A DNA stretch of 64,000 nucleotides from Acidobacteriota bacterium. Lineage in GTDB: Bacteria; Acidobacteriota; Vicinamibacteria; Vicinamibacterales; SCN-69-37. A model generated the notes under the pieces. That model saw nothing but the letters and a program-made list of their open reading frames with translations, searched no databases and was not told the DNA's origin. The DNA is taken from positions 101,725-165,724 of the forward strand of contig QGVF02000005.1 in the NCBI GenBank assembly GCA_003242705.2. The letters run 5' to 3'. The first letter of the stretch is position 1, and each line of letters begins with the position of its first letter. A program made the position numbers and the translations under genes. This document shows, one piece after another, positions 45,829-64,000 of the stretch.

Positions 45829-45985
45829 TCACGCGCGGGTGAGGCCTCGACTTCCCATATGGACCATTCCGCTGCTCACTGCGCCGCCGGCGACGACGCC
45901 GGCGGCAGGGTATCCGTTTTGCACTGACTCAGGGCCTGGACCGACGCCGCGCCGGTGCGGGCGGTCCATCCTTCGAGGAGACCCT

Positions 45986-46363
45986 ATGCGTGCCCATGTC
46001 CGATTTGCCGGTATCTTCCTGCTGGCCACCCTGTTCGCCCTGCCGGCGACCGCCCAGCACATCGCCGACCCCGTCACGCTGCACGACGTGATGACCGAAA
46101 GCGAACGCGCCGATGCGGCCAACCGCGATGCGGTCCTCCAGGCCCTCGAGCGCGACGACGTGCGGCAGCTGGCGGCCCGGTTCGGGCTCGACGTGAAGGA
46201 AGCACGATCGGCCGTCATGGCGCTCGACGGCGCCGAGCTCGCTGAGCTCGCGGCTCCGGCACACGCTCTTGCCGACGCACAGGCCGGCGGCCAGACGACC
46301 ATCGTCATCTCGCTGACGACGCTGCTGCTCGTGCTGATCCTCATCGCGATCCTCGCCAGTTGA
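45986..46363 (+). CDS. Secreted, C-terminally tail-anchored mini-protein with a pre-anchor Gly-Gly motif (PA2779-like)
   Basis: GAGGAG ribosome-binding site, then the signal MRAHVRFAGIFLLATLFALPATAQ. The helical segment reads RDAVLQALERDDVRQLAARFGLDVKEARSAVMALDGAELAEL. It then runs ADAQAGG-QTT into the hydrophobic tail IVISLTTLLLVLILIAILAS. This layout matches my recollection of the PA2779 family. Confidence 0.6.
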   Translation: MRAHVRFAGIFLLATLFALPATAQHIADPVTLHDVMTESERADAANRDAVLQALERDDVRQLAARFGLDVKEARSAVMALDGAELAELAAPAHALADAQAGGQTTIVISLTTLLLVLILIAILAS

Positions 46364-46431
46364 GCCGCGAACCGATTTCACCGGAGCGTGCCGACGGGCG
46401 TTGGCGCCGCCCCCTGCTAGAGTGGCGTGCC

Positions 46432-48606
46432 ATGTTGAATCGAGCGTCCCTCCCGGCACGCTTCAGATCGGTGACGGCCGGCCTCCTGCTGTCGGTCCTC
46501 ACCCTCGCGCCCGCGTCGGCCGCACAGCCGGCCGCCGCGGGCGTCCTGCTCGACATCACCTACTACGCGCAGGCGCCGCTGCACTGCGGCGCAGCGGCGC
46601 TGGCCATGGTCCTCCGATACTGGGGCCACCCGTCGGCCGTGCCGGCCGACTTTTCGCCGCTCGTCGACCCGGCGGCCGGCGGCATCACGACGACGGCCCT
46701 TGCGGCCGCCGTCGAGGACCGCGGCTGGCGCGCCGTTGCCGGCCAGGCGCCGGCAGCCGGCGCGATCGAGACGCTCGAACACCACGTGGCGCGCGGACGC
46801 CCGGTGATCGCCCTCGTCGACGGCGGCACAGATGCCCTGCATTACGTCGTCGTTGTCGGCTTCGCCGATGATCAGGTGATCGTGCACGACCCGGCGCGCG
46901 CGCCTTACACGCGGATGACCGCCGACGAGTTCGATCGCCGCTGGCAGCACTCGTCCCGCTGGATGCTCGTCGTCCTGCCGCCCGCCGGGGCCGGGACGCC
47001 CGCGGCAGGCGCCACCGTGCTCACCAGCGGCGTCGCCATGACGCCGCTGGTGGCTGAATCTGCCGCGCCACCCTCAGCCGGTGCGGCATCCGTCGATGTG
47101 ACGTCTGCAGCCTCTGCCTCGGCGGCGCCCGACGCGGCCGCCGCCGAGACGGTCTGCAACGGCCTGGTCGCCGACGCGGTCGCCGCGGCGTCGACCGATC
47201 AGGCGCGCAGCGAGCGTCTGCTACGCGACGCGATCGCGCGCTGCCCGGAAGCACCGGCAGCCTATCGCGAACTGGCTGGTCTCCGGCTCGTGCAGCGCCG
47301 CCTCGACGAGAGCGCAGCGCTCGCCGCCGAAGCCGTGGCCCGCGACGCGCGCGACGGACACGCCATCGACCTGCTCGCGGCGAGCCGGTTCGCCAGCGGC
47401 GACCGGCTCGGCGCGCTGCAGGCCTGGAATCTCAAGGGAGAGCCGCTCGTCGACCGTATCGGGATCGAAGGCCTGCGGCGTACGCCGCATCCCGTCGTTA
47501 CCGGCATGATGCGCCTCGAGCCGGGTGCGGAACTGACAGCCGGCGGCTTCACCCGGGCGAGCCGGCGGCTCGACGAGCTCCCGAGCTCGACCCGGTCGAC
47601 GCTCCGTTACCAGCCTCTCGGCAACGGACGCGTGGCGCTCGAGGCGGTCCTGAACGAGCGCCGCATGCTGCCGTTCGGCCCGATTGGACTTGCGAGCATC
47701 GCTACCCGGGCGCTCATCACGCGCGAGCTGAAGGCCGACGTCACGGCGCCGTTCTCGCTTGGTGATTCCTGGACGCCGGCGTTCCGCTGGCCGTATCCGC
47801 GCCGCCGGCTCGCGCTCGACGTCGCCGTGCCGCTCGGCCAGCGGTTGCCTGGCGTCATCCACATCGAAATGCTGCGCGAGCGGCAGACCTACACGCGCGC
47901 GCTCGAAGGTCTCGATCGCACTGAGGCCATGCGCCGGCGCTTTTCCGCCACCTGGGCGGACTGGCTCGCCGGCCCGCTCCGGGTCGAGCTGGGCGGCAGC
48001 TCCGATCGGCACGATGGGCAGCGACACTTCAGCGTCATCGCGGCGACGACACTCCGCCTGGCGGCCGATCACGTGGCTGTCCACACCCGACTCGAAGGCT
48101 GGACCGGCGCAGGCACCCGTGACGGCTTCCACACGGCCGACCTGGCCGTCGACTGGCGCTCGACACGCCAGGCCGATACGGTCCTGTGGACGGGGCGCGT
48201 GGGTCTGTCGTCGGCATCGGCCGGTGCGCCACTCGCGCTCTGGCCGGGCGCCGGCTCGCAGCTCGACCGCACGTCGCTGCTGCGCGGACGCCGACTCGTC
48301 ATCGACGACGTGACGGCGGGCGAGGTCTTCGGCCGCCGGCTCGCCTATCTGACCGTCGAGCGGCACCAGCCACTCGTCAGGACCGAGTACGGCAGCCTCG
48401 CCCTGGCCACCTTTGCCGACATCGCACAGGCGCACTACCGCCTCGACCACACCAATCCGTCGCGCCTGCACGTCGACGTTGGTGCCGGACTTCGGGCACA
48501 GCAGCCGGGCAGTGCCGATCAGCTGCGCGTCGATATCGCGGTGGGCCTACGCGACGGTCGCGTGCGGGCGTCGGCCGGTTACGTGGCCCGATGGGGCCGC
48601 CGCTGA
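46432..48606 (+). CDS. Secreted multidomain protein: C39-like cysteine peptidase, Ala-rich linker, TPR-like region, POTRA-like domain and a predicted Omp85-type beta-barrel
   Basis: The ATG at 46432 gives a signal peptide (LLLSVLTLAPASAAQ). Peptidase signatures are YYAQAPLHCGAAALAMVLRYWG (Gln/Cys), LHYVVVVGF (His) and VIVHDPA (Asp). The POTRA-like segment reads IGIEGLRRTPHPVVTGMMRLEPGAELTAGGFTRASRRLDELPSSTRSTLRYQPLGNGRVALEAVLNER. The last roughly 330 aa show alternating beta-strand patterns, an LLRG motif and a VDVGAGLR...RVDIAVGLRDGRVRASAGYV ending. Confidence 0.7.
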   Translation: MLNRASLPARFRSVTAGLLLSVLTLAPASAAQPAAAGVLLDITYYAQAPLHCGAAALAMVLRYWGHPSAVPADFSPLVDPAAGGITTTALAAAVEDRGWRAVAGQAPAAGAIETLEHHVARGRPVIALVDGGTDALHYVVVVGFADDQVIVHDPARAPYTRMTADEFDRRWQHSSRWMLVVLPPAGAGTPAAGATVLTSGVAMTPLVAESAAPPSAGAASVDVTSAASASAAPDAAAAETVCNGLVADAVAAASTDQARSERLLRDAIARCPEAPAAYRELAGLRLVQRRLDESAALAAEAVARDARDGHAIDLLAASRFASGDRLGALQAWNLKGEPLVDRIGIEGLRRTPHPVVTGMMRLEPGAELTAGGFTRASRRLDELPSSTRSTLRYQPLGNGRVALEAVLNERRMLPFGPIGLASIATRALITRELKADVTAPFSLGDSWTPAFRWPYPRRRLALDVAVPLGQRLPGVIHIEMLRERQTYTRALEGLDRTEAMRRRFSATWADWLAGPLRVELGGSSDRHDGQRHFSVIAATTLRLAADHVAVHTRLEGWTGAGTRDGFHTADLAVDWRSTRQADTVLWTGRVGLSSASAGAPLALWPGAGSQLDRTSLLRGRRLVIDDVTAGEVFGRRLAYLTVERHQPLVRTEYGSLALATFADIAQAHYRLDHTNPSRLHVDVGAGLRAQQPGSADQLRVDIAVGLRDGRVRASAGYVARWGRR

Positions 48607-49812
48607 CGACGCATCCGGCTCGCGCGGGTGGTCGCTGAAACGGGACGGATCGAACAGATCGGCCCAGGCACTCCTGCCGCCACGGACGGCTTCCACCGCC
48701 ATCATCGCGGCAAGCGTGCCGTATGACATGCCATTGCCGCCGAAGCCGGCAGCCAGGTAAATGCCCGGTGCGACTTCGCCGATACACGGTCGCCCGTCGA
48801 CCGACTCGACGACCGTTCCCGACCAGCGATGCTCGATGCGGACACCCGGCAGCCGCTGTCGCAGACGCCGCTCCAGCCGACTGTAGCGATCGCCGGCCGC
48901 TGCACTGTCACCCGGATGATCCAGCCCGCCGAACACGACGACATCGTCCTGCCCGTCTTCACGGTCGATGCGCAGGTATTCGTACGACCGGTGCCGATGT
49001 TCCCAGTAGAGGCCTTCGTCGAGCGGCCCCTGTGGGGCCGTGCCGGCGACAACATAGGTGGTTGACGTCGACAGCGACGACCGCAGGTGCGGCGCGAGAT
49101 CGAGAACGTCCGGCAGCGGGACGTGCGTCGCGCAGAAGATGAACGGCGCCCTGACCTGATGGCGCCCCACGTACACGACGCGCCGATCGGCGTCGAGGCG
49201 ATCGACTTCCGTGTGCTCCGCCACGAGGCTGCCGTTGCCGTCGATGCTCTCGAGCAGGACCGTGAGGTACCGGAGCGGATGCAGGCGCGCCTGTCCGTCG
49301 AAGAGAACGCCAGGCACGCCGAGGCCGGGTACCGCGTCTACGTACGCGGCCTCGATGCCCAGCGCGTGCGCGGCCACGGCTTCTTCGGTGAGCGAGGCCC
49401 GCTGCCGCACCTCGTCCGACGACGAGGCGTGCAGGCAGCCGCGAACCCAGGCGAACTGGCAGTTGATGCGCGCGTCGCGGATCTCGGCACGGACGCGTGC
49501 CACCGCGGCAAAGCCTGCTTCCCACAGCGTCCGGGCGGACGCCGTGCCCAGTTCGTCGACGAGCGTGGCAAGCGGCTGATCGGCGATCGCCGTCAGGTGC
49601 GCGGTGCTCCGGCCCGTCTGGCCGCTCCCGCAGCGGCGTCGCTCGAGCAGCGCCACCCGCAGCCCGGCCTGCTTGAGCAGGTAGGCCGTCGTGATGCCCG
49701 CGATACCTCCCCCGACTATCACCGCGTCGACCTCGAGGGATCGATCGAGCGCAGGAAAGGACGGCAGCTGTGCCGTCGACTCCCAGCAGGACTGCCCTTC
49801 GTTCTCGAACAT
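48547..49812 (-). CDS. FAD-dependent oxidoreductase (DAO family)
   Basis: It has the dinucleotide-binding motif DAVIVGGGIAGITTAYLLKQAGLRVALLE and GFGGNGMSYG near the C-terminus. I chose the start at ATG 49812 (MFENEG). Its 3' end overlaps the convergent gene by 60 nt. Confidence 0.85.
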   Translation of the reverse strand: MFENEGQSCWESTAQLPSFPALDRSLEVDAVIVGGGIAGITTAYLLKQAGLRVALLERRRCGSGQTGRSTAHLTAIADQPLATLVDELGTASARTLWEAGFAAVARVRAEIRDARINCQFAWVRGCLHASSSDEVRQRASLTEEAVAAHALGIEAAYVDAVPGLGVPGVLFDGQARLHPLRYLTVLLESIDGNGSLVAEHTEVDRLDADRRVVYVGRHQVRAPFIFCATHVPLPDVLDLAPHLRSSLSTSTTYVVAGTAPQGPLDEGLYWEHRHRSYEYLRIDREDGQDDVVVFGGLDHPGDSAAAGDRYSRLERRLRQRLPGVRIEHRWSGTVVESVDGRPCIGEVAPGIYLAAGFGGNGMSYGTLAAMMAVEAVRGGRSAWADLFDPSRFSDHPREPDASSAAAPSGHVTGRRPHATVA

Positions 49813-50081
49813 CTGACTCCGCCTGGCTCTCACTGCGTCCCGTCAGCGTGCAGCGGGGTGGTGCAAGGCGGAGGCCAGCCGGCGACGTCTTTCCTGTCGG
49901 TTTGCTCCGCACATTTCTGCACAGAGCTTTACGGACTGACTCACGGAAGCGGCGCTGCGATTTCAGTTGTGCATGTGGGGACTTTCGGGCCTGACAGGGA
50001 CGTGCCGTCCGGTTACCCACGCGGACGCACTTCGGCGGCATACTCTTGTGTGCACCTTCGCGCCGGCAGCAGCGGTGCTGC

Positions 50082-57676: not shown

Positions 57677-58915
57677 GTGCGAATCACCCTGCTGACGAAC
57701 GAATATCCGCCCAACGTCTACGGCGGCGCGGGCGTGCACATCGAGTACCTCTCCCGCGAACTGGCCGCGCTCGACGACCGGCAGCACCAGGTGCGCGTCC
57801 TCTGCTTCGGCGACCAGCGGACCGACGCCGGCAACCTGCACGTGCAGGGCCTGCAGCCGGCCGCCCGCATCGCGGCGCGCGACCCGCGCCACGAGCGCTT
57901 CTTCGACACCGCCATCCGCAACCTGCAGATGGCCGCCGATCCGCACGACACCGACATCGTGCACTGCCACACCTGGTACACGCACTTCGCCGGCTGCCTC
58001 GTCCAGCAGCTGGCCGGCGTGCCGCTCGTGCTCACCACCCACTCGCTCGAGCCGCATCGTCCCTGGAAGGCGGAACAGCTGGGCTCGGCCTATCAGGCGT
58101 CGAGCTGGGTCGAGCGCACCGCCTACCAGAACGCCGACGGCGTGATTGCCGTCTCGGAAGCCATGCGGCGCGACGTGCACCAGCTCTATGGTGTCCCCCA
58201 CGAGCGCATCCGTGTCATTCACAACGGCATCGATCTCGACGAGTACCGCCCGCGCCAGGCACCCGATACGCTGCGGCGCTACGGCATCGATCCCGACCAG
58301 TCGTATGTCCTGTTCGTCGGACGGATCACGCGGCAGAAGGGGATCGTGCACCTGGTGAACGCCATCCCGCACCTCGCCCCGGGCACCCAGGTCGTGCTCT
58401 GCGCCGGAGCCCCCGATACGCCCGAAATCGCCGCCGAAATGACCGCCGCCGTCGAGCGCGCCCGCACCTCCACCGACAACCGTATCGTCTGGATCGACGA
58501 GATGCTGCCGAAGGCCACGACCATCGAGCTCTACACGCACGCGGCGGTGTTCGTGTGCCCGTCGGTGTACGAGCCATTCGGCATCATCAACCTCGAGGCC
58601 ATGGCGTGTCACACCCCGATTGTGGCCTCGGCGGTCGGCGGTATCCCCGAAATCGTCGACGACGGCCGGACGGGGCTGCTCGTGCCGATTCGGCCGCGCA
58701 GCGAAACCGACGTCGAGCCGGCCGATCCAGAGGCGTTCGCCCGCGATCTGGCCGCCGCCGTCAACTCGCTGATGGCCGATCCGGCGCGTCGTGCCACCAT
58801 GGCGGAAGCCGCCCGCGAGCGCGTGGAGGCCGAGTTCAGCTGGCAGCGCATCGCCCGCCAGACGCTCGACTTCTACCGCGAGCTCATCGAAGGCAGAACG
58901 GCCCATGCCCGGTAG
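57677..58915 (+). CDS. glgM: GT4 glycosyltransferase of the GlgM / Corynebacterium-type glycogen synthase family (alpha-maltose-1-phosphate synthase-like)
   Basis: The GTG at 57677 gives VRITLLTNEYPPNVYGGAGVHIEYL... It carries HCHTWYT, TTHSLEPHRPWKAEQLG, FVGRITRQKG, VFVCPSVYEPFGIINLEAMAC and GGIPEIV. It is nearly colinear with actinobacterial GlgM as I remember it. Confidence 0.85.
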   Translation: MRITLLTNEYPPNVYGGAGVHIEYLSRELAALDDRQHQVRVLCFGDQRTDAGNLHVQGLQPAARIAARDPRHERFFDTAIRNLQMAADPHDTDIVHCHTWYTHFAGCLVQQLAGVPLVLTTHSLEPHRPWKAEQLGSAYQASSWVERTAYQNADGVIAVSEAMRRDVHQLYGVPHERIRVIHNGIDLDEYRPRQAPDTLRRYGIDPDQSYVLFVGRITRQKGIVHLVNAIPHLAPGTQVVLCAGAPDTPEIAAEMTAAVERARTSTDNRIVWIDEMLPKATTIELYTHAAVFVCPSVYEPFGIINLEAMACHTPIVASAVGGIPEIVDDGRTGLLVPIRPRSETDVEPADPEAFARDLAAAVNSLMADPARRATMAEAARERVEAEFSWQRIARQTLDFYRELIEGRTAHAR

Positions 58916-60203
58916 AACGTTCATCGGCCTGATTGTCGTCCTCGTCGCCCTGCTGCGAGCGGCTGCCCCCGCGGCTGCCCAGGATCAGCAGGCGTCCGAC
59001 CAGCCGGTGCCGCTCGTCGAGCTCCGCTTCGACGGGCTCTCGCGCTACGACTACGACCAGATCGTTCGGCTCACGGGCCTGGAGATCGGCCAGATGGTCA
59101 CCCAGGCGCAGCTGACGAACATGGCGCAGCAGCTGGCCGACACGGGACTGTTCACCGGGATCCGCTACCAGTACACGACCACCGGGAAGGGCCTCAGCGC
59201 ACGCTTCATCGTCCGCGAGGCGCAGTGGACCGTGCCCGTCATCTTCGATAACTTCATCGGCATCCCCGACGACGAGCTGATCGCCGACGTGGCGCGCTAC
59301 GTGCCCGGCTTCGACGGCACCGCAGTCGAGGGAGGCGCCGCCAACAACCTCATCGGCACGGCCCTGCAGCGCGTGCTCGCCGAACGCGGTCTGCCCGGGC
59401 GGGTCGTCGTCATCCCGCAGGTGAACATCGAGGAGAACTGGACGCGCTACGCCTTCGCCGTGATCGAGACGGGGCGCGACATGTCGGTGTGCGCCATCGA
59501 CACGCCGGGTGTGTCCTCCAACCACGCGCGCGAGATTGAACGCCTGCTCTCGGGCGTGATCGGCGAACGCTACTCGAAGGCGCAGCTGCTGCGCCTGCGC
59601 GACGGTTCCCTGCTGAACTACTACCGGCGCCGCGGCTACTGGGGAGCGTCGCTCGGCGAGATTGACGCCGCGCTCGATGCCGGCTGCCGGGGAGTGACCG
59701 TCACGCTGCCCGTCAACGAAGGCATCGCCTACCGTGTCGCCGGTGTGCGCTGGACGGGCAACAGGGCGCTGCCCGACGTGGCGCTCGACAAGGCGATGGC
59801 CCTGAAGCCCGGTGTCGTGGCCAGCCTCGTCGACGTGCAGGACGGCCTGCTGCGTGTCCGGCGCGAGTACGAGCGCCTCGGCCACATTCTCGTGAGCCAT
59901 ACCCTCGATCAGGAGCTCGACGACGCCGGGGGCCGTGTCACGTTTGTCGTAACGCTCGACGAAGGCCCACAGCTGCGCATGGGACGCTTCGAGGTCGAAG
60001 GACTCCCGCCCGATGTGGCGGCCGATCTCGTCGCGCGCTGGGAACTGCCCGAAGGCGCCGTGTTCGACGGCACCTATGTCGACCGCTACATGACGACCAA
60101 CCGCCTTCGCATCCAGCGAGACGACGGGCCGATCATGACGATCGAAGTGACCGTCGAGCGGACGGCCGGCCTGGCGCACGTGAAGCTGTTGCCCGCCCGC
60201 TGA
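58905..60203 (+). CDS. Secreted POTRA-repeat protein without a beta-barrel
   Basis: The ATG at 58905 overlaps the glgM stop by 11 nt, and the signal is FIGLIVVLVALLRAAAPAAAQ. Repeated POTRA-like units include VELRFDGLSRYDYDQIVRLTGLEIGQMV...LADTGLFTGIRYQY and YRVAGVRWTGNRALPDVALDKAMALKPGVV...LGHILV. The protein ends after 432 aa with no barrel-like region. Confidence 0.6.
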   Translation: MPGRTFIGLIVVLVALLRAAAPAAAQDQQASDQPVPLVELRFDGLSRYDYDQIVRLTGLEIGQMVTQAQLTNMAQQLADTGLFTGIRYQYTTTGKGLSARFIVREAQWTVPVIFDNFIGIPDDELIADVARYVPGFDGTAVEGGAANNLIGTALQRVLAERGLPGRVVVIPQVNIEENWTRYAFAVIETGRDMSVCAIDTPGVSSNHAREIERLLSGVIGERYSKAQLLRLRDGSLLNYYRRRGYWGASLGEIDAALDAGCRGVTVTLPVNEGIAYRVAGVRWTGNRALPDVALDKAMALKPGVVASLVDVQDGLLRVRREYERLGHILVSHTLDQELDDAGGRVTFVVTLDEGPQLRMGRFEVEGLPPDVAADLVARWELPEGAVFDGTYVDRYMTTNRLRIQRDDGPIMTIEVTVERTAGLAHVKLLPAR

Positions 60204-60306: not shown

Positions 60307-61551
60307 TCACGCCACTCCCTGACGCCTCTGCTCGAGCCAGCGGCGCTCGACGACGGTCGGACAGAGCGCAATCGCGCGGTCGAAAGCCGCGCGTGCGTCT
60401 TCGACCCGCCCGAGGCGCGCGAGCAGGTCGCCGCGGACGGCGTGATACAGGTGATACTCGTCGAGCGCCACGCTTTCGAGGGCCGTCAGTCCCGCCTCCG
60501 CACCGGCGATCTCCGCGAGCGCCACCGCGCGGTTGAGCGCAACGACCGGCGTCGGAGTGAGTGCGTACAGCTGGTCATACAGTGCCACGATCTGCCGCCA
60601 GTCCGTGTCTTCGAACGCCGGCGCATCGCTGTGCACGGCCTGGATCGCCGCCTGCACCTGATAGGGGCCTGGGCGTGCCAGCTGGAGGCATCGGCGTACG
60701 ATCGCCTGGCCTTCGGCGATCTTCAGGCGATCCCACCGCGATCGATCCTGCCCGCCCAGCGGAACGAACGAGCCGTCGGCGTCGAGCCGCGCCTCACGGC
60801 GCGCGTCGGCGAGCAGCATGAGCCCCAGCAGGCCGAGGACCTCGGGCTCGCCCGGCATCAGCGCGGCCAGCGCGCGGCCGAGACGAATCGCCTCGTCGCA
60901 CAGGTCGCCGCGCACCAGCTGCCCGCCCCCGCTCGCGCTGTAGCCCTCATTGAAGATCAGGTAGACGACCGCGAGCACGTGTGCGAGGCGCGCCGGCAGG
61001 TCCGCCGCCTCGGGCACCCGATACGGAATGCCGGCGTCGCGAATCTTCCGCTTCGCCCGCACGATCCGCTGCGCCATCGTCGCTTCCGGCACGAGAAACG
61101 CGCGGGCAATCGCGCCGGTATCGAGTCCTCCCAGCAGCCGAAGCGTGAGGGCTACCTGTGCCTCAGGCGCCAGCGCCGGATGGCAGCACGTGAAGATCAG
61201 GCGGAGCCGCTCGTCTTCCACGACCTCTCCTTCCGGCTCGTGCGGAGGCTCGATGACGCGCGAGGCCCAGTCGGCCGCCCGGTGCCTGGTGGCGCGGCTC
61301 GCCTCGCGCCGAGCCCGATCGATCGCCCGGCGGCGCGCCGTCGTGATGAGCCACGCCGCCGGGCTCGCGGGCACGCCGTCGATCGGCCAGCGCTCGAGGG
61401 CGACGGCCAGGGCATCCTGCACCACTTCCTCGGCTGCGTCGATCGATCCACACGTGCGCACCAGCACACTCACCACGCGGCCGTACTCGCGGCGGAAGAG
61501 CTCTTCGAGCTCCTTCGCCGCCGGCGCGCGGCGCTCGTGCTCAGTGTTCAT
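60307..61551 (-). CDS. ECF-like sigma factor with a C-terminal TPR-like extension (COG4941-type)
   Basis: Region 2 reads VVQDALAVALERW. Region 4 reads AQVALTLRLLGGLDTGAIARAFLVPEATMAQRIVRAK. A roughly 230-aa helical C-terminal domain follows. This type classically pairs with a YCII gene. Confidence 0.85.
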   Translation of the reverse strand: MNTEHERRAPAAKELEELFRREYGRVVSVLVRTCGSIDAAEEVVQDALAVALERWPIDGVPASPAAWLITTARRRAIDRARREASRATRHRAADWASRVIEPPHEPEGEVVEDERLRLIFTCCHPALAPEAQVALTLRLLGGLDTGAIARAFLVPEATMAQRIVRAKRKIRDAGIPYRVPEAADLPARLAHVLAVVYLIFNEGYSASGGGQLVRGDLCDEAIRLGRALAALMPGEPEVLGLLGLMLLADARREARLDADGSFVPLGGQDRSRWDRLKIAEGQAIVRRCLQLARPGPYQVQAAIQAVHSDAPAFEDTDWRQIVALYDQLYALTPTPVVALNRAVALAEIAGAEAGLTALESVALDEYHLYHAVRGDLLARLGRVEDARAAFDRAIALCPTVVERRWLEQRRQGVA

Positions 61552-62010: not shown

Positions 62011-64000
62011 TCAGTGGACCGTATTGCTCGCCTGCAGGACCGGCGCGCCCTCGGCCCGCCGCGACTGGAACGGCAGGCTGTTGACGATTTCGAGGATGAG
62101 CGTCTGCAGGCCCTGGTCCGACTCGCCCAGTCGACGGACGATGCCGGCGACGGTGCGGCGGTCGTAGCGTTCGAGACCGCGCCCCAGTGCGTAGGTGAGC
62201 ATCTTCTCGGTCAGCGCGCGCGAGAACTCGGGCAGCATGTCCGAGAGGACATCCCGCAGCTCGGCCGGCCCGTTGAACGTGCGTCCGTTCGGCAGCCGCC
62301 CGCTCGCGTCAATCGCGAACGCCCCGTCCATGTCGCGCCACCGGCCGATGGCATCGTAGTTCTCGAGCGCGAAGCCGAGCGGATCCATGCGCGAATGACA
62401 CGACGCGCAGATGGCGTTCGTCCGGTGCTGCTCCATCTGCTCGCGGATCGACTTCGACTTGCCGAGCGCCTCTTCGTCGAGCGCCGGCACGTCGGGGGGC
62501 GGCGGCGGCAGCGGGCTGCCGAGGATGTTCTGCAGCACGTACTTGCCGCGGATGACCACCGACGTCCGCGTCGGATAGCTCGACACGGCCAGCACGCTCG
62601 CCTGCCCCAGCACGCCGCCGCGCTGGGGCGTTGTCAGCTCCACGCGCCGGAACTCGGATCCCTCGATGCCCTCGATGCCGTAGTAGTCGGCAAGCACGTC
62701 GTTGACGAACGTGTAGCGCGCATTGAGGAACTCGCTGATCGGCCGGTTCTCACGGAGGATGTAGTCGAAGAACATCTCCGTTTCGGTGCGCATGGCGTCG
62801 CGCAGCTCGGGGTTCCAGGCCGGGAACCGGTCCGGATCGGGCCGGATGACGTCGAGATTGCGGATCTCGAGCCACTGACCGGCGAAGTTCTGCGCGAGCG
62901 CCCGCGACCGCGGATCGGCCAGCATCCGCTTCACCTGCGCCTCGAGCACGCCGGAACGGCGCAACTCTCCCCGCTCGGCCAGGTCGAGCAGTTCATCGTC
63001 GGGCATCGAGCTCCAGAGGAAGTAGCTCAGGCGCGACGCGAGCTCGACGTCCGTGATCGGGTGCGACCGCGTCGGATCGTCCGGGTAGCGATCGCGCTCG
63101 ATACGGAACAGAAAATGCGGAGAGACGAGCATCGCCTGCAGCGCCAGCTCGATGCCCTTCTCGGCTGACAGGCCGTCTTCACGGGCCAGGTCGACAAAGC
63201 GGCGCAGGTCGGCCACGTCCTGGTCGGTGACCGGGCGACGGTAGGCGCGTCGGGCCAGCGTCGAAAGGATCCGGTCGACGCACTCGCGGCCCGTTTCCGG
63301 ATCGCAGATGAGGATCCGCTCGCGGCTCGGCTTGACGCCTTCCTGCTCGAACGGCCCGACGACGGTGACCGAACCGATCCACTTGTTGATCTTGTCCCTG
63401 TAAACGTCCTCGGGCGCGAGCGTCTTCACGTACGGGTCGTCGATGAAGCCGAGTCGCAGCGTGTGATCGCCAGCCGGCACCGGGATGCGAATCTCGGTTT
63501 CCGAATACGGATTGAAGTAGACGAGTCCCGACGGCTTCGTCTCGACCTGCGTGGTGTGCACGAGGTCGCCGTCGATCCACACACCAAGCGTGACGGGCGC
63601 CGCGTCGGCCGGCCGCTCGCCCGGCATGCCGATGCGCAGGACGTAGTCGGCGTCGAAATCGAACCGGTGCGTCGCCTCGACGCGGCTCGGGTTGAGCCGC
63701 CGCAGGTTGCGGAAGCGGAGGCTGTACTCGACCTCGATCGGCTTCGGCAGCGGATCGGCGGCCAGCGCCCGCGCCGCGATCTGCTCGGCCGCGTTCACGT
63801 AGGCCTCCATCAGCACGGGCGACACCGTGAGGATCTCGCCGATGTTGTCGAAGCCTTCACCCGAGTCGTCGGTCGGGAACGACCGATCGGCGCGGAACTC
63901 GATCGCGAGCAGATCGCGGATCGTGTTGGTGTACTCAGCGCGGTTGAGCCGCCGCGCCACGACGCGGCCGGGATCGGGCGGCGTCAGCGCGTCGAGCCGC
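62011..64000 (-). CDS. DUF1587/DUF1592/DUF1595/DUF1588/DUF1585-type protein, partial; the 5' end lies beyond the window
   Basis: Signatures include RRLNRAEYTNTIRDLL, RGKYVLQNILGSPLPPPPPDVPAL and CASCHSRMDPLGFALENYDAIGRWR. The reading frame stays open upstream of the GTG at 63960 to the window edge. Confidence 0.85.
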   Translation of the reverse strand, partial: RLDALTPPDPGRVVARRLNRAEYTNTIRDLLAIEFRADRSFPTDDSGEGFDNIGEILTVSPVLMEAYVNAAEQIAARALAADPLPKPIEVEYSLRFRNLRRLNPSRVEATHRFDFDADYVLRIGMPGERPADAAPVTLGVWIDGDLVHTTQVETKPSGLVYFNPYSETEIRIPVPAGDHTLRLGFIDDPYVKTLAPEDVYRDKINKWIGSVTVVGPFEQEGVKPSRERILICDPETGRECVDRILSTLARRAYRRPVTDQDVADLRRFVDLAREDGLSAEKGIELALQAMLVSPHFLFRIERDRYPDDPTRSHPITDVELASRLSYFLWSSMPDDELLDLAERGELRRSGVLEAQVKRMLADPRSRALAQNFAGQWLEIRNLDVIRPDPDRFPAWNPELRDAMRTETEMFFDYILRENRPISEFLNARYTFVNDVLADYYGIEGIEGSEFRRVELTTPQRGGVLGQASVLAVSSYPTRTSVVIRGKYVLQNILGSPLPPPPPDVPALDEEALGKSKSIREQMEQHRTNAICASCHSRMDPLGFALENYDAIGRWRDMDGAFAIDASGRLPNGRTFNGPAELRDVLSDMLPEFSRALTEKMLTYALGRGLERYDRRTVAGIVRRLGESDQGLQTLILEIVNSLPFQSRRAEGAPVLQASNTVH

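Follow-up and report, generated by a model that had tools for sequence, protein, structure and literature searches.

What is a cysteine peptidase for when it is carried on an outer membrane barrel and encoded beside a small protein that ends in a Gly-Gly motif and a membrane helix? The question is raised by two adjoining genes in a 64,000-nucleotide stretch of DNA (the window) from an Acidobacteriota bacterium of the order Vicinamibacterales (lineage SCN-69-37; assembly GCA_003242705.2, contig QGVF02000005.1, positions 101,725 to 165,724 of the forward strand). The first gene encodes a mini-protein of 125 residues; the second encodes a protein of 724 residues in which a C39-type peptidase is followed by TPR, POTRA and Omp85-type barrel domains. 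Together they are a self-contained two-gene envelope module. The reading favoured here, to which we would give about an even chance, is that the large protein is an outer membrane-tethered periplasmic peptidase which would cut its dedicated, inner membrane-anchored substrate, the mini-protein, after Gly-Gly.

The two genes

Read from the sequence, in window coordinates, the small open reading frame (ORF) extends from an ATG at 45986 to a stop codon at 46361-46363, and the large ORF from an ATG at 46432 to a stop codon at 48604-48606. Both are on the + strand, separated by 68 nucleotides, and both lie where a sequence-only reading of this DNA had placed them; the strings which that reading quoted (ADAQAGG, IVISLTTLLLVLILIAILAS, YYAQAPLHCGAAAL, LHYVVVVGF and VHDPA) are likewise all found in the sequence. 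In this window of ~69% G+C, a pattern scan found no sigma-70-like promoter or intrinsic terminator within or between the two genes, which is consistent with a single transcript without proving one. The features of the small gene, and the extent of the large one, are as follows.

45975..45980, + strand: GAGGAG, Shine-Dalgarno-like, 5 nucleotides 5' of the small-gene ATG (read from the sequence)
45986..46363, + strand: small gene, PA2779-family/DUF6627 mini-protein, 125 residues (NF033919 and PF20332 scores)
45986..46054, + strand: signal peptide of the mini-protein, residues 1-23 (A21-T-A23, then Q24; from sequence, predicted cleavage site)
46055..46285, + strand: acidic four-helix domain, residues 24-100, predicted to be periplasmic (AlphaFold2 model)
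46286..46291, + strand: Gly101-Gly102, proposed C39 cleavage site (invariant in alignments)
46301..46360, + strand: C-terminal membrane helix, residues 106-125, with an IVISLTTLLL core (conservation; model helix 110-124)
46432..48606, + strand: large gene, 724 residues, signal peptide-C39-linker-TPR-POTRA-Omp85 (hidden Markov models, AlphaFold2, Foldseek)

The mini-protein and its Gly-Gly motif

The mini-protein scores 49.0 bits against the NCBIfam model PA2779_fam (NF033919, cut-off 40, residues 11-123) and 32.2 bits against Pfam DUF6627 (PF20332, threshold 27). Its membership of this family is supported both by these scores and by the adjoining gene for a PA2778-type C39 peptidase. Homologues numbered 36 in a single-sequence search and 389 in a profile search.

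A basic n-region, hydrophobic core and AxA site mark the signal peptide, which is helical in the model at residues 3-17. Right behind the cleavage site, at the predicted mature N-terminus (residues 25-28, 46058-46069), the mini-protein and its homologues carry a conserved H-(V/I)-(V/A)-D motif. The AlphaFold2 model, built with 31 homologues, is of moderate confidence overall (predicted local distance difference test, pLDDT, 70) and reaches ~70-87 in the domain spanning residues 24-100. It predicts helices at 29-54, 57-66, 70-79, 82-100 and 110-124, with the Gly-Gly in a coil between the last two. A Foldseek comparison with the PDB gave no fold match with E < 3.

The Gly-Gly is invariant in 31 of 31 close homologues and in 35 of 35 sequences of a second alignment spanning several phyla. 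It lies directly behind the predicted helix 82-100 and ahead of the membrane helix, an arrangement resembling a double-glycine leader, in which a helix is followed by Gly-Gly; position -4 to the cut site is mostly Leu, Ile or Val, again as in such leaders. After G101-G102 come Q-T-T and then a hydrophobic helix which runs to the last residue. Within this helix, conservation reaches 90% or more at each of I108, S109, T111, T112, L113 and L115, and its start (I-S-x-T-T-L-L-L) is better conserved than most of the soluble domain, which is unusual for a plain anchor. The motif and tail anchor picked out in the sequence-only reading are thus features of the family. A cut after G102 is predicted to yield a 79-residue fragment (8.3 kDa, computed isoelectric point 4.5) and a 23-residue membrane peptide. 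A search of the window for further proteins with Gly-Gly and an anchor, or for paralogues, found none.

Pairing of the two genes

A protein search returned at least 120 full-length homologues of the large protein, 650-740 residues long, from genome bins of Vicinamibacterales, Acidobacteria and Binatia; those with a name are annotated 'C39 family peptidase'. A search with a single peptide pattern found a relative in 373 species-representative genomes. With so many relatives the observation is not due to chance. The pairing counts given here refer to the best 80 of these 373 species-level genomes, all of which carry full-length fusions; their hosts are Acidobacteriota (Vicinamibacteria), Eisenbacteria, Krumholzibacteria and Gemmatimonadota, together with single bins labelled Bacteroidota and Deltaproteobacteria.

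The supposition that the two genes belong together is borne out in these genomes: a search with the mini-protein profile found its gene adjacent and co-directional in 79 of the 80 fusion loci, the sole exception being L066. It is upstream in 65 loci, one of them truncated by a contig end, and downstream in the other 14 (L004, L006, L007, L009, L015, L020, L022, L025, L026, L028, L030, L039, L071 and L083). Gene order is therefore not fixed, but adjacency is. Clustering of the flanking ORFs within +/-3 kb in the 80 loci revealed no third conserved gene, and the neighbours vary by locus.

A gene for a sigma-54-dependent activator, which carries the sensor domains XylR_N and V4R, adjoins the module in one lineage, the bins of which are labelled Eisenbacteria or Krumholzibacteria (L087 6755-8422; L088 2056-3735; eight of the 80 GTDB loci, for example L060 4978-6690). 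This could reflect lineage synteny, or the activator could be a regulator.

Two candidates for other arrangements of the genes were rejected. What looks like a natural fusion of the two genes in L029 (2416-4968) is a single ORF created by a frameshift inside the small gene, an artefact of a long-read genome bin. A 'short' peptidase of 457 residues in L087 (5439-6812), considered as an unfused form, is a degraded or frameshifted copy. The two contexts inspected among the mini-protein profile matches listed were a fused neighbour of 688 residues and this degraded 457-residue copy; neither was an unfused PA2778 locus. A tblastn search for the C39 domain on plasmids found nothing.

The peptidase head

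The N-terminal half of the large protein comprises the following features.

46432..46521, + strand: signal peptide, residues 1-30 (A-S-A, then A31), without a lipobox (from sequence, predicted cleavage site)
46540..46986, + strand: C39-type cysteine peptidase, residues 37-185 (PF03412, PF13529, ComA alignment, model pLDDT >90)
46570-46572, 46585-46587, 46840-46842 and 46888-46890, + strand: the C39 catalytic set Q47, C52, H137 and D153, respectively (alignment)
46987..47127, + strand: disordered Ala/Pro/Ser-rich linker, residues 186-232 (pLDDT <50 at 198-232)
47128..47430, + strand: TPR domain, residues 233-333, six helices (AlphaFold2 model, family profile)

The signal peptides of both proteins are of the Sec type, and the N-termini of the large-protein homologues are comparable. 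Residues 40-175 match both Peptidase_C39 (PF03412, 47.3, threshold 22) and Peptidase_C39_2 (PF13529, 49.1, threshold 24). When the protein is aligned with the ComA peptidase domain (3k8u), C52, H137 and D153 fall on its DCG, HY and GDP positions. In an alignment of 74 full-length homologues, H137 and D153 are found in every sequence and Q47 and C52 in 73, so that the Gln/Cys/His/Asp arrangement recognised in the sequence-only reading is confirmed by alignment, conservation and both Pfam models.

The match to the NCBIfam model PA2778_fam (NF033920) is 69.4 bits, below the equivalog cut-off of 150, and places protein residues 40-303 on positions 3-252 of the 255-position model, that is, on C39 and the first part of the TPR domain. 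On this score the large protein is a PA2778 homologue outside the equivalog. TIGR01193 and TIGR03796 match via the peptidase part only (residues 51-174). The NCBIfam scan found no ABC transmembrane or ATPase domains, so the protein does not classify as a peptidase-containing ABC transporter, and the FapD model gave no match to the window protein.

Between C39 and TPR the spacer (P183-C242) varies across homologues from a minimum of 9 residues through a median of 25 to a maximum of 63. The TPR domain carries two cysteines, Cys242 (47155-47157) and Cys271 (47242-47244), which are both present in 72 of the 74 homologues and are also retained in C39-less forms that keep the TPR domain; a periplasmic disulfide between them is possible.

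A protein so strictly paired with a peptidase might be something other than its substrate. The mini-protein could be an inhibitor, immunity-like or a pseudo-substrate, or a structural trans-envelope partner of the TPR/C39 part, its Gly-Gly being a hinge or a decoy. We regard this as unlikely, although a number of observations speak for it. The pairing is one-to-one, the highly conserved membrane helix suggests a role beyond anchoring, and a structural partnership of this kind has a parallel in TamA, which pairs with the inner membrane-anchored TamB. A TraDIS (transposon insertion sequencing) screen in Pseudomonas aeruginosa lists PA2778 as a candidate toxin, without follow-up; as candidate immunity genes the screen took small coding sequences in which insertions were fewer, and PA2778 lies upstream of one such sequence, which the text does not name (10.1101/733030). 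C39 toxins with cognate immunity proteins do exist, as in StbD/StbI (10.64898/2026.05.07.723447). The present proteins, however, are both well conserved across phyla, and not polymorphic as toxin-immunity pairs are; their loci lie among housekeeping genes, and PADLOC matches neither of them. The Sec signal peptide and the membrane anchor of its own argue that the peptidase is not a delivered effector. An invariant Gly-Gly behind a helix is exactly the recognition element of C39 peptidases.

The POTRA domain and the barrel

The C-terminal half of the large protein comprises the following features.

47446..47658, + strand: single POTRA domain, residues 339-409, beta-alpha-alpha-beta-beta (model, profile match)
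47680..48588, + strand: Omp85-type beta-barrel, helix 417-430 plus strands 432-719 (Foldseek, family profile)
48283-48285, 48412-48414 and 48418-48420, + strand: barrel motif residues, loop-6 R618, strand-13 F661 and strand-13 D663, respectively (alignment)

The AlphaFold2 model was built on P0001, which is 100% identical (rounded) to the window protein and has Thr48 where the window has Ala48. With a pLDDT of 88.9 and a predicted template modelling score of 0.86, it shows a C39 fold at 37-182, a disordered linker at ~190-232, TPR helices at 233-333, the POTRA domain at 339-409, a helix at 417-430 and the barrel at 432-719. The junction between TPR and POTRA is five residues long, and this length is invariant across homologues. 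Foldseek ranks TamA first, then BamA, then FhaC (E 2e-12 to 5e-10, over 413-548 aligned columns).

A family profile compared with solved structures recovers each domain of this architecture: the peptidase domains of ComA, PCAT1 and LahT (E 1e-8 to 1e-4), consensus TPR proteins (1e-62 to 1e-8), the POTRA region of F. nucleatum BamA (1.2e-4) and the barrels of BamA and TamA (8e-8 to 3e-4 overall; Bacteroides BamA 8e-8, TamA 1.4e-4). The Pfam models POTRA, POTRA_2, ShlB and Bac_surface_Ag (PF01103) do not match the window protein at E <= 1. Its sole Omp85 trace among hidden Markov models is to BamA (TIGR03303, E 0.35), and precomputed PF01103 matches exist in 2 of 120 homologues. The order of TPR, POTRA and a C-terminal Omp85 barrel that had been proposed from the sequence is thus upheld by the model, by Foldseek and by the profile, without a Pfam match to POTRA or Omp85, while the proposed count of 16 strands is likely, given that DSSP lists 15 strand elements in the model. 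The 2014 survey of the superfamily by Heinz and Lithgow reportedly gathered its sequences with Pfam models, and the fusion may have been omitted from Pfam-based Omp85 surveys because its barrel fails those models.

Omp85 proteins share a lid lock formed by (V/I)RG(Y/F) in loop 6 and (F/G)xDxG on strand 13 (Maier et al. 2015, PMC4490367). The Phe form of strand 13 together with a strand-14 glycine distinguishes the BamA/TamA insertases from the TpsB translocases, which have the Gly form, GxDxG (PMC4490367). In the large protein, R618 is shared by all 74 homologues, inside L-L-R-(A/G)-H-P-L of the long loop that precedes the last five strands. F661-x-D663 is present in 73 of 74 on the next-but-one strand after loop 6, and the strand that follows carries D682, G684 and G686. 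The lid-lock positions of the window protein read L-R-(A/G)-H and F-x-D-x-A and so depart from the canonical motifs, with Arg, Phe and Asp in the expected elements. By the published criterion, the Phe-form strand 13 and the strand-14 glycines suggest a barrel of the insertase type.

The large gene and a convergent ORF for an FAD (flavin adenine dinucleotide)-dependent oxidoreductase (48547-49833, - strand, Pfam DAO) share 60 nucleotides at their 3' ends (48547-48606).

Barrels without a peptidase

The POTRA-barrel part, used as query in an exhaustive phmmer search, returned 656 cluster representatives (clusters at 50% identity), 469 of them at E <= 1e-10 and 200 at E <= 1e-30. Within the top 150, the 139 representatives that had not previously been collected were classified by architecture. 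Full fusions accounted for 72. At least 22 consist of a signal peptide, no or one TPR helix, POTRA and barrel, a count which includes three read by eye from the group lacking a signal peptide. A further four have a signal peptide, the full TPR domain, POTRA and barrel without C39, and the remainder are fragments.

Six C39-less loci were examined (L089, L090, L091, L094, L095 and L096), and the mini-protein gene was present in none. Neither it nor a C39 domain was found in their flanks, the upstream flank being ~1.2-1.4 kb in L096 and L091 and only a few hundred nucleotides in L090. The barrel genes of five of these loci, with their own signal peptides and with TPR kept in some but POTRA alone in others, lie as follows.

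L094, 8001-9293
L089, 2444-3838
L095, 2101-3666
L096, 1224-2810
L091, 1440-2768

Two of the loci share neighbours with the window. In L094 the barrel gene is immediately preceded by a methyltransferase-like gene, with one of the BrkB family further upstream; in L089 a DUF4399 gene lies downstream.

The C39-less proteins retain R618, F661, D663, D682 and G684, along with other family-conserved residues. For 17 of 26 of them the nearest POTRA-barrel relative is a fused protein, a different one from case to case, in a comparison somewhat biased by the larger number of fused sequences. The simplest reading of these sequences is that the peptidase head may have been lost repeatedly together with the small gene, the barrel remaining under selection. 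With the small gene present in 79 of 80 loci that have a C39 head and in none of the six that lack it, the mini-protein tracks the peptidase and not the barrel. Since the C39-less lineages keep the barrel motifs without the mini-protein, the barrel's conserved function is independent of this cargo.

This distribution bears directly on a further proposal of the sequence-only reading, namely that the protein's own barrel might export or display the released fragment in the manner of two-partner secretion. The TPR and POTRA domains would then pass the 79-residue fragment on to the barrel. The Omp85 superfamily does include translocases, among them FhaC, to which the Foldseek match has an E of 3e-10, but the best structural matches are TamA and BamA, and F-x-D on strand 13 with D682, G684 and G686 on strand 14 is the BamA/TamA form, where TpsB proteins have G-x-D-x-G. 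The POTRA domain is suitably placed between the peptidase/TPR head and the barrel; it is, however, single, whereas TpsB transporters have two such domains, and there is no match to POTRA_2 or ShlB and no N-terminal plug helix. In favour of export, the fragment would be small, acidic and all-helical. The partner of a TpsB transporter is a TpsA protein with a TPS domain, and here it is a 125-residue helical protein; moreover, at least 26 cluster representatives have the barrel with every motif residue but no C39, in loci which, where examined, contain no mini-protein. Export through the barrel is therefore quite unlikely, and this part of the earlier proposal is not sustained.

Proposed cleavage at the Gly-Gly site

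Cleavage of the mini-protein by the C39 head gains support from the same distribution, because the small gene was found only with the C39 head. In outline, the mini-protein would be exported through Sec, lose its signal peptide and be kept in the inner membrane by its C-terminal helix, with the acidic four-helix domain facing the periplasm. The large protein would reside in the outer membrane, where the barrel would hold the POTRA, TPR and C39 domains on the periplasmic side. The TPR domain would probably serve as a docking surface for the helical domain of the mini-protein, and the C39 head would recognise the amphipathic helix ending in the invariant Gly-Gly. A cut after Gly102 would then separate the 79-residue soluble domain from the 23-residue membrane peptide. 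The barrel would have a conserved function of its own and would, in addition, fix the peptidase at the outer membrane, rather than act as a dedicated export channel for the fragment. Cleavage could serve to release the acidic domain, to unmask the conserved membrane peptide or to sever a trans-envelope contact.

A periplasmic position of the head is supported by the invariant five-residue joint between TPR and POTRA, by the spacer between C39 and TPR (9 residues at its minimum, 25 at its median) and by the Sec-type signal peptides. It is also supported by the curation of PA2778_fam (C39 and TPR in 255 positions, with no barrel) and PA2779_fam as families named for each other as partners.

Several points weigh against cleavage. 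The Gly-Gly lies three residues from the inner membrane helix, the peptidase is tethered at the outer membrane and the linker is short in most homologues, so that the active site must either span a narrow periplasm or act before barrel assembly; the C39 head, being N-terminal, leaves Sec first. The window's own subclade has Gln, Arg or Pro at position -4, in place of a hydrophobic residue. Conservation of the membrane helix beyond the needs of an anchor suggests that the function may reside in the helix or in the uncut protein. The large protein falls well below the PA2778_fam equivalog cut-off (69 against 150 bits). Lastly, no paper on these families was found, and with it no published cleavage for any member of PA2778 or PA2779.

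A bolder version would make the module a new route of sorting from the inner to the outer membrane. C39 would attack the Gly-Gly, carry the 79-residue domain as a thioester, and then transfer it in a sortase-like manner to an outer membrane acceptor or feed it to the POTRA domain and barrel for surface display; alternatively, cleavage would sense the distance between the membranes. We consider this highly unlikely.

Comparison with known systems

A search of the literature found no published function for PA2778 or the PA2779/DUF6627 family, and no description of a C39-Omp85 fusion. On profile scores, the small protein is a PA2779 member and the large one a divergent PA2778 homologue; the two families are known as a pair, and the fusion to a POTRA-barrel appears to be new. 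As in those families the genes are adjacent, the small protein is a member and the PA2778 model covers the C39 and TPR of the large protein. The difference is that the window protein adds ~390 residues, the POTRA domain and Omp85 barrel, which are absent from the 255-position model.

The C39 domains of ComA, PCAT1 and LahT share with the large protein the fold, the Gln/Cys/His/Asp residues and a presumed substrate in which a helix precedes Gly-Gly. In contrast to these, there is no ABC transporter here, and the enzyme would be exported by Sec and act outside the cytoplasm. The substrates also differ: those of ComA, PCAT1 and LahT have a short leader before the Gly-Gly and the secreted peptide after it, whereas the mini-protein has a signal peptide and a 79-residue domain (Gly-Gly included) before the proposed cut, and a membrane helix after it.

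By function, the nearest studied case is FapD, a Sec-exported periplasmic C39 peptidase which is catalytically required for secretion through a separate barrel, FapF, and the substrate of which is still unknown (PMC5557850). Here too a periplasmic C39 peptidase would work with an outer membrane barrel, and FapD is a precedent for the favoured reading. FapD and FapF are, however, separate proteins, FapF being a trimeric 12-strand barrel outside Omp85, and the module has neither amyloid subunit genes nor a match to the FapD model.

In GlyGly-CTERM/rhombosortase, PEP-CTERM/exosortase and LPXTG/sortase systems, a short motif before a C-terminal membrane helix is the target of a dedicated protease, and the mini-protein resembles such substrates. 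Each of those enzymes has many substrates; here there is one, and the enzyme is a cysteine peptidase with a soluble domain rather than an intramembrane protease. The mini-protein does not classify as GlyGly-CTERM, with no NCBIfam match at E <= 1 and a tail of 0-3 residues without an Arg/Lys cluster.

TamA and BamA are the best structural matches, with the central loop-6 arginine and the Phe-type strand 13 in common, and TamA likewise has an inner membrane-anchored partner. They have three or five POTRA domains and (V/I)RG(Y/F) in loop 6, whereas the window protein has one POTRA domain, L-R-(A/G)-H, no match to Pfam Bac_surface_Ag, and a peptidase and TPR head.

By architecture, the nearest cases are PlpD (type Vd) and the 'Metallo' Omp85 proteins, in which an N-terminal enzyme likewise precedes one POTRA domain and a barrel like that of BamA (PMC4104836). 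PlpD carries a patatin and 'Metallo' proteins a metallophosphatase, while here the enzyme head is C39 with TPR and has a dedicated small partner gene. The survey of Heinz and Lithgow (2014) mentions no class bearing a peptidase, TPR or C39 (PMC4104836). That C39 should be a surface passenger brought through or alongside the barrel, as in type Vd autotransporters, with the mini-protein acting as a periplasmic chaperone or as an inhibitor before export, is scarcely probable: the order of signal peptide, enzyme, single POTRA and BamA-like barrel is that of PlpD (PMC4104836) and the window protein has a disordered linker behind C39, but the N-terminal part is C39 with TPR and not a patatin, the spacer is 9-25 residues in most homologues, partly helical and in many too short to span a barrel, which argues against threading, a five-residue joint holds TPR to the periplasmic POTRA, the PA2778 model treats C39 and TPR as one unit without a barrel, and the partner's Gly-Gly site would lie on the periplasmic face of the inner membrane.

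Other genes in the window

A second POTRA-bearing gene lies further along the window. This ORF of 470 residues (58791-60203, + strand) matches BamA TIGR03303 at positions 5-359 of 741, the POTRA part only, and Pfam POTRA at E 2.5e-15, and has no barrel; the product is a truncated paralogue of BamA or else a periplasmic protein with POTRA alone. It is followed by a convergent gene for an extracytoplasmic function (ECF)-type sigma factor with DUF6596 and TPR (60307-61551, - strand). An ORF at 62011-63960 (- strand) encodes the PSD/PSCyt domain set DUF1585, DUF1587, DUF1588, DUF1592 and DUF1595.

Significance

Known Omp85 proteins insert or translocate other proteins and few carry enzymes. A C39-bearing class with a one-to-one partner is an addition to the superfamily. 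The class is found in several hundred species, among Acidobacteriota (Vicinamibacteria), Eisenbacteria, Krumholzibacteria and Gemmatimonadota. Lineages which have the barrel and lack both the peptidase head and the mini-protein provide a natural comparison set. The PA2778 and PA2779 families, the genes of Pseudomonas aeruginosa included, gain a concrete hypothesis, namely that the small protein may be cleaved after the invariant Gly-Gly which precedes its membrane anchor.

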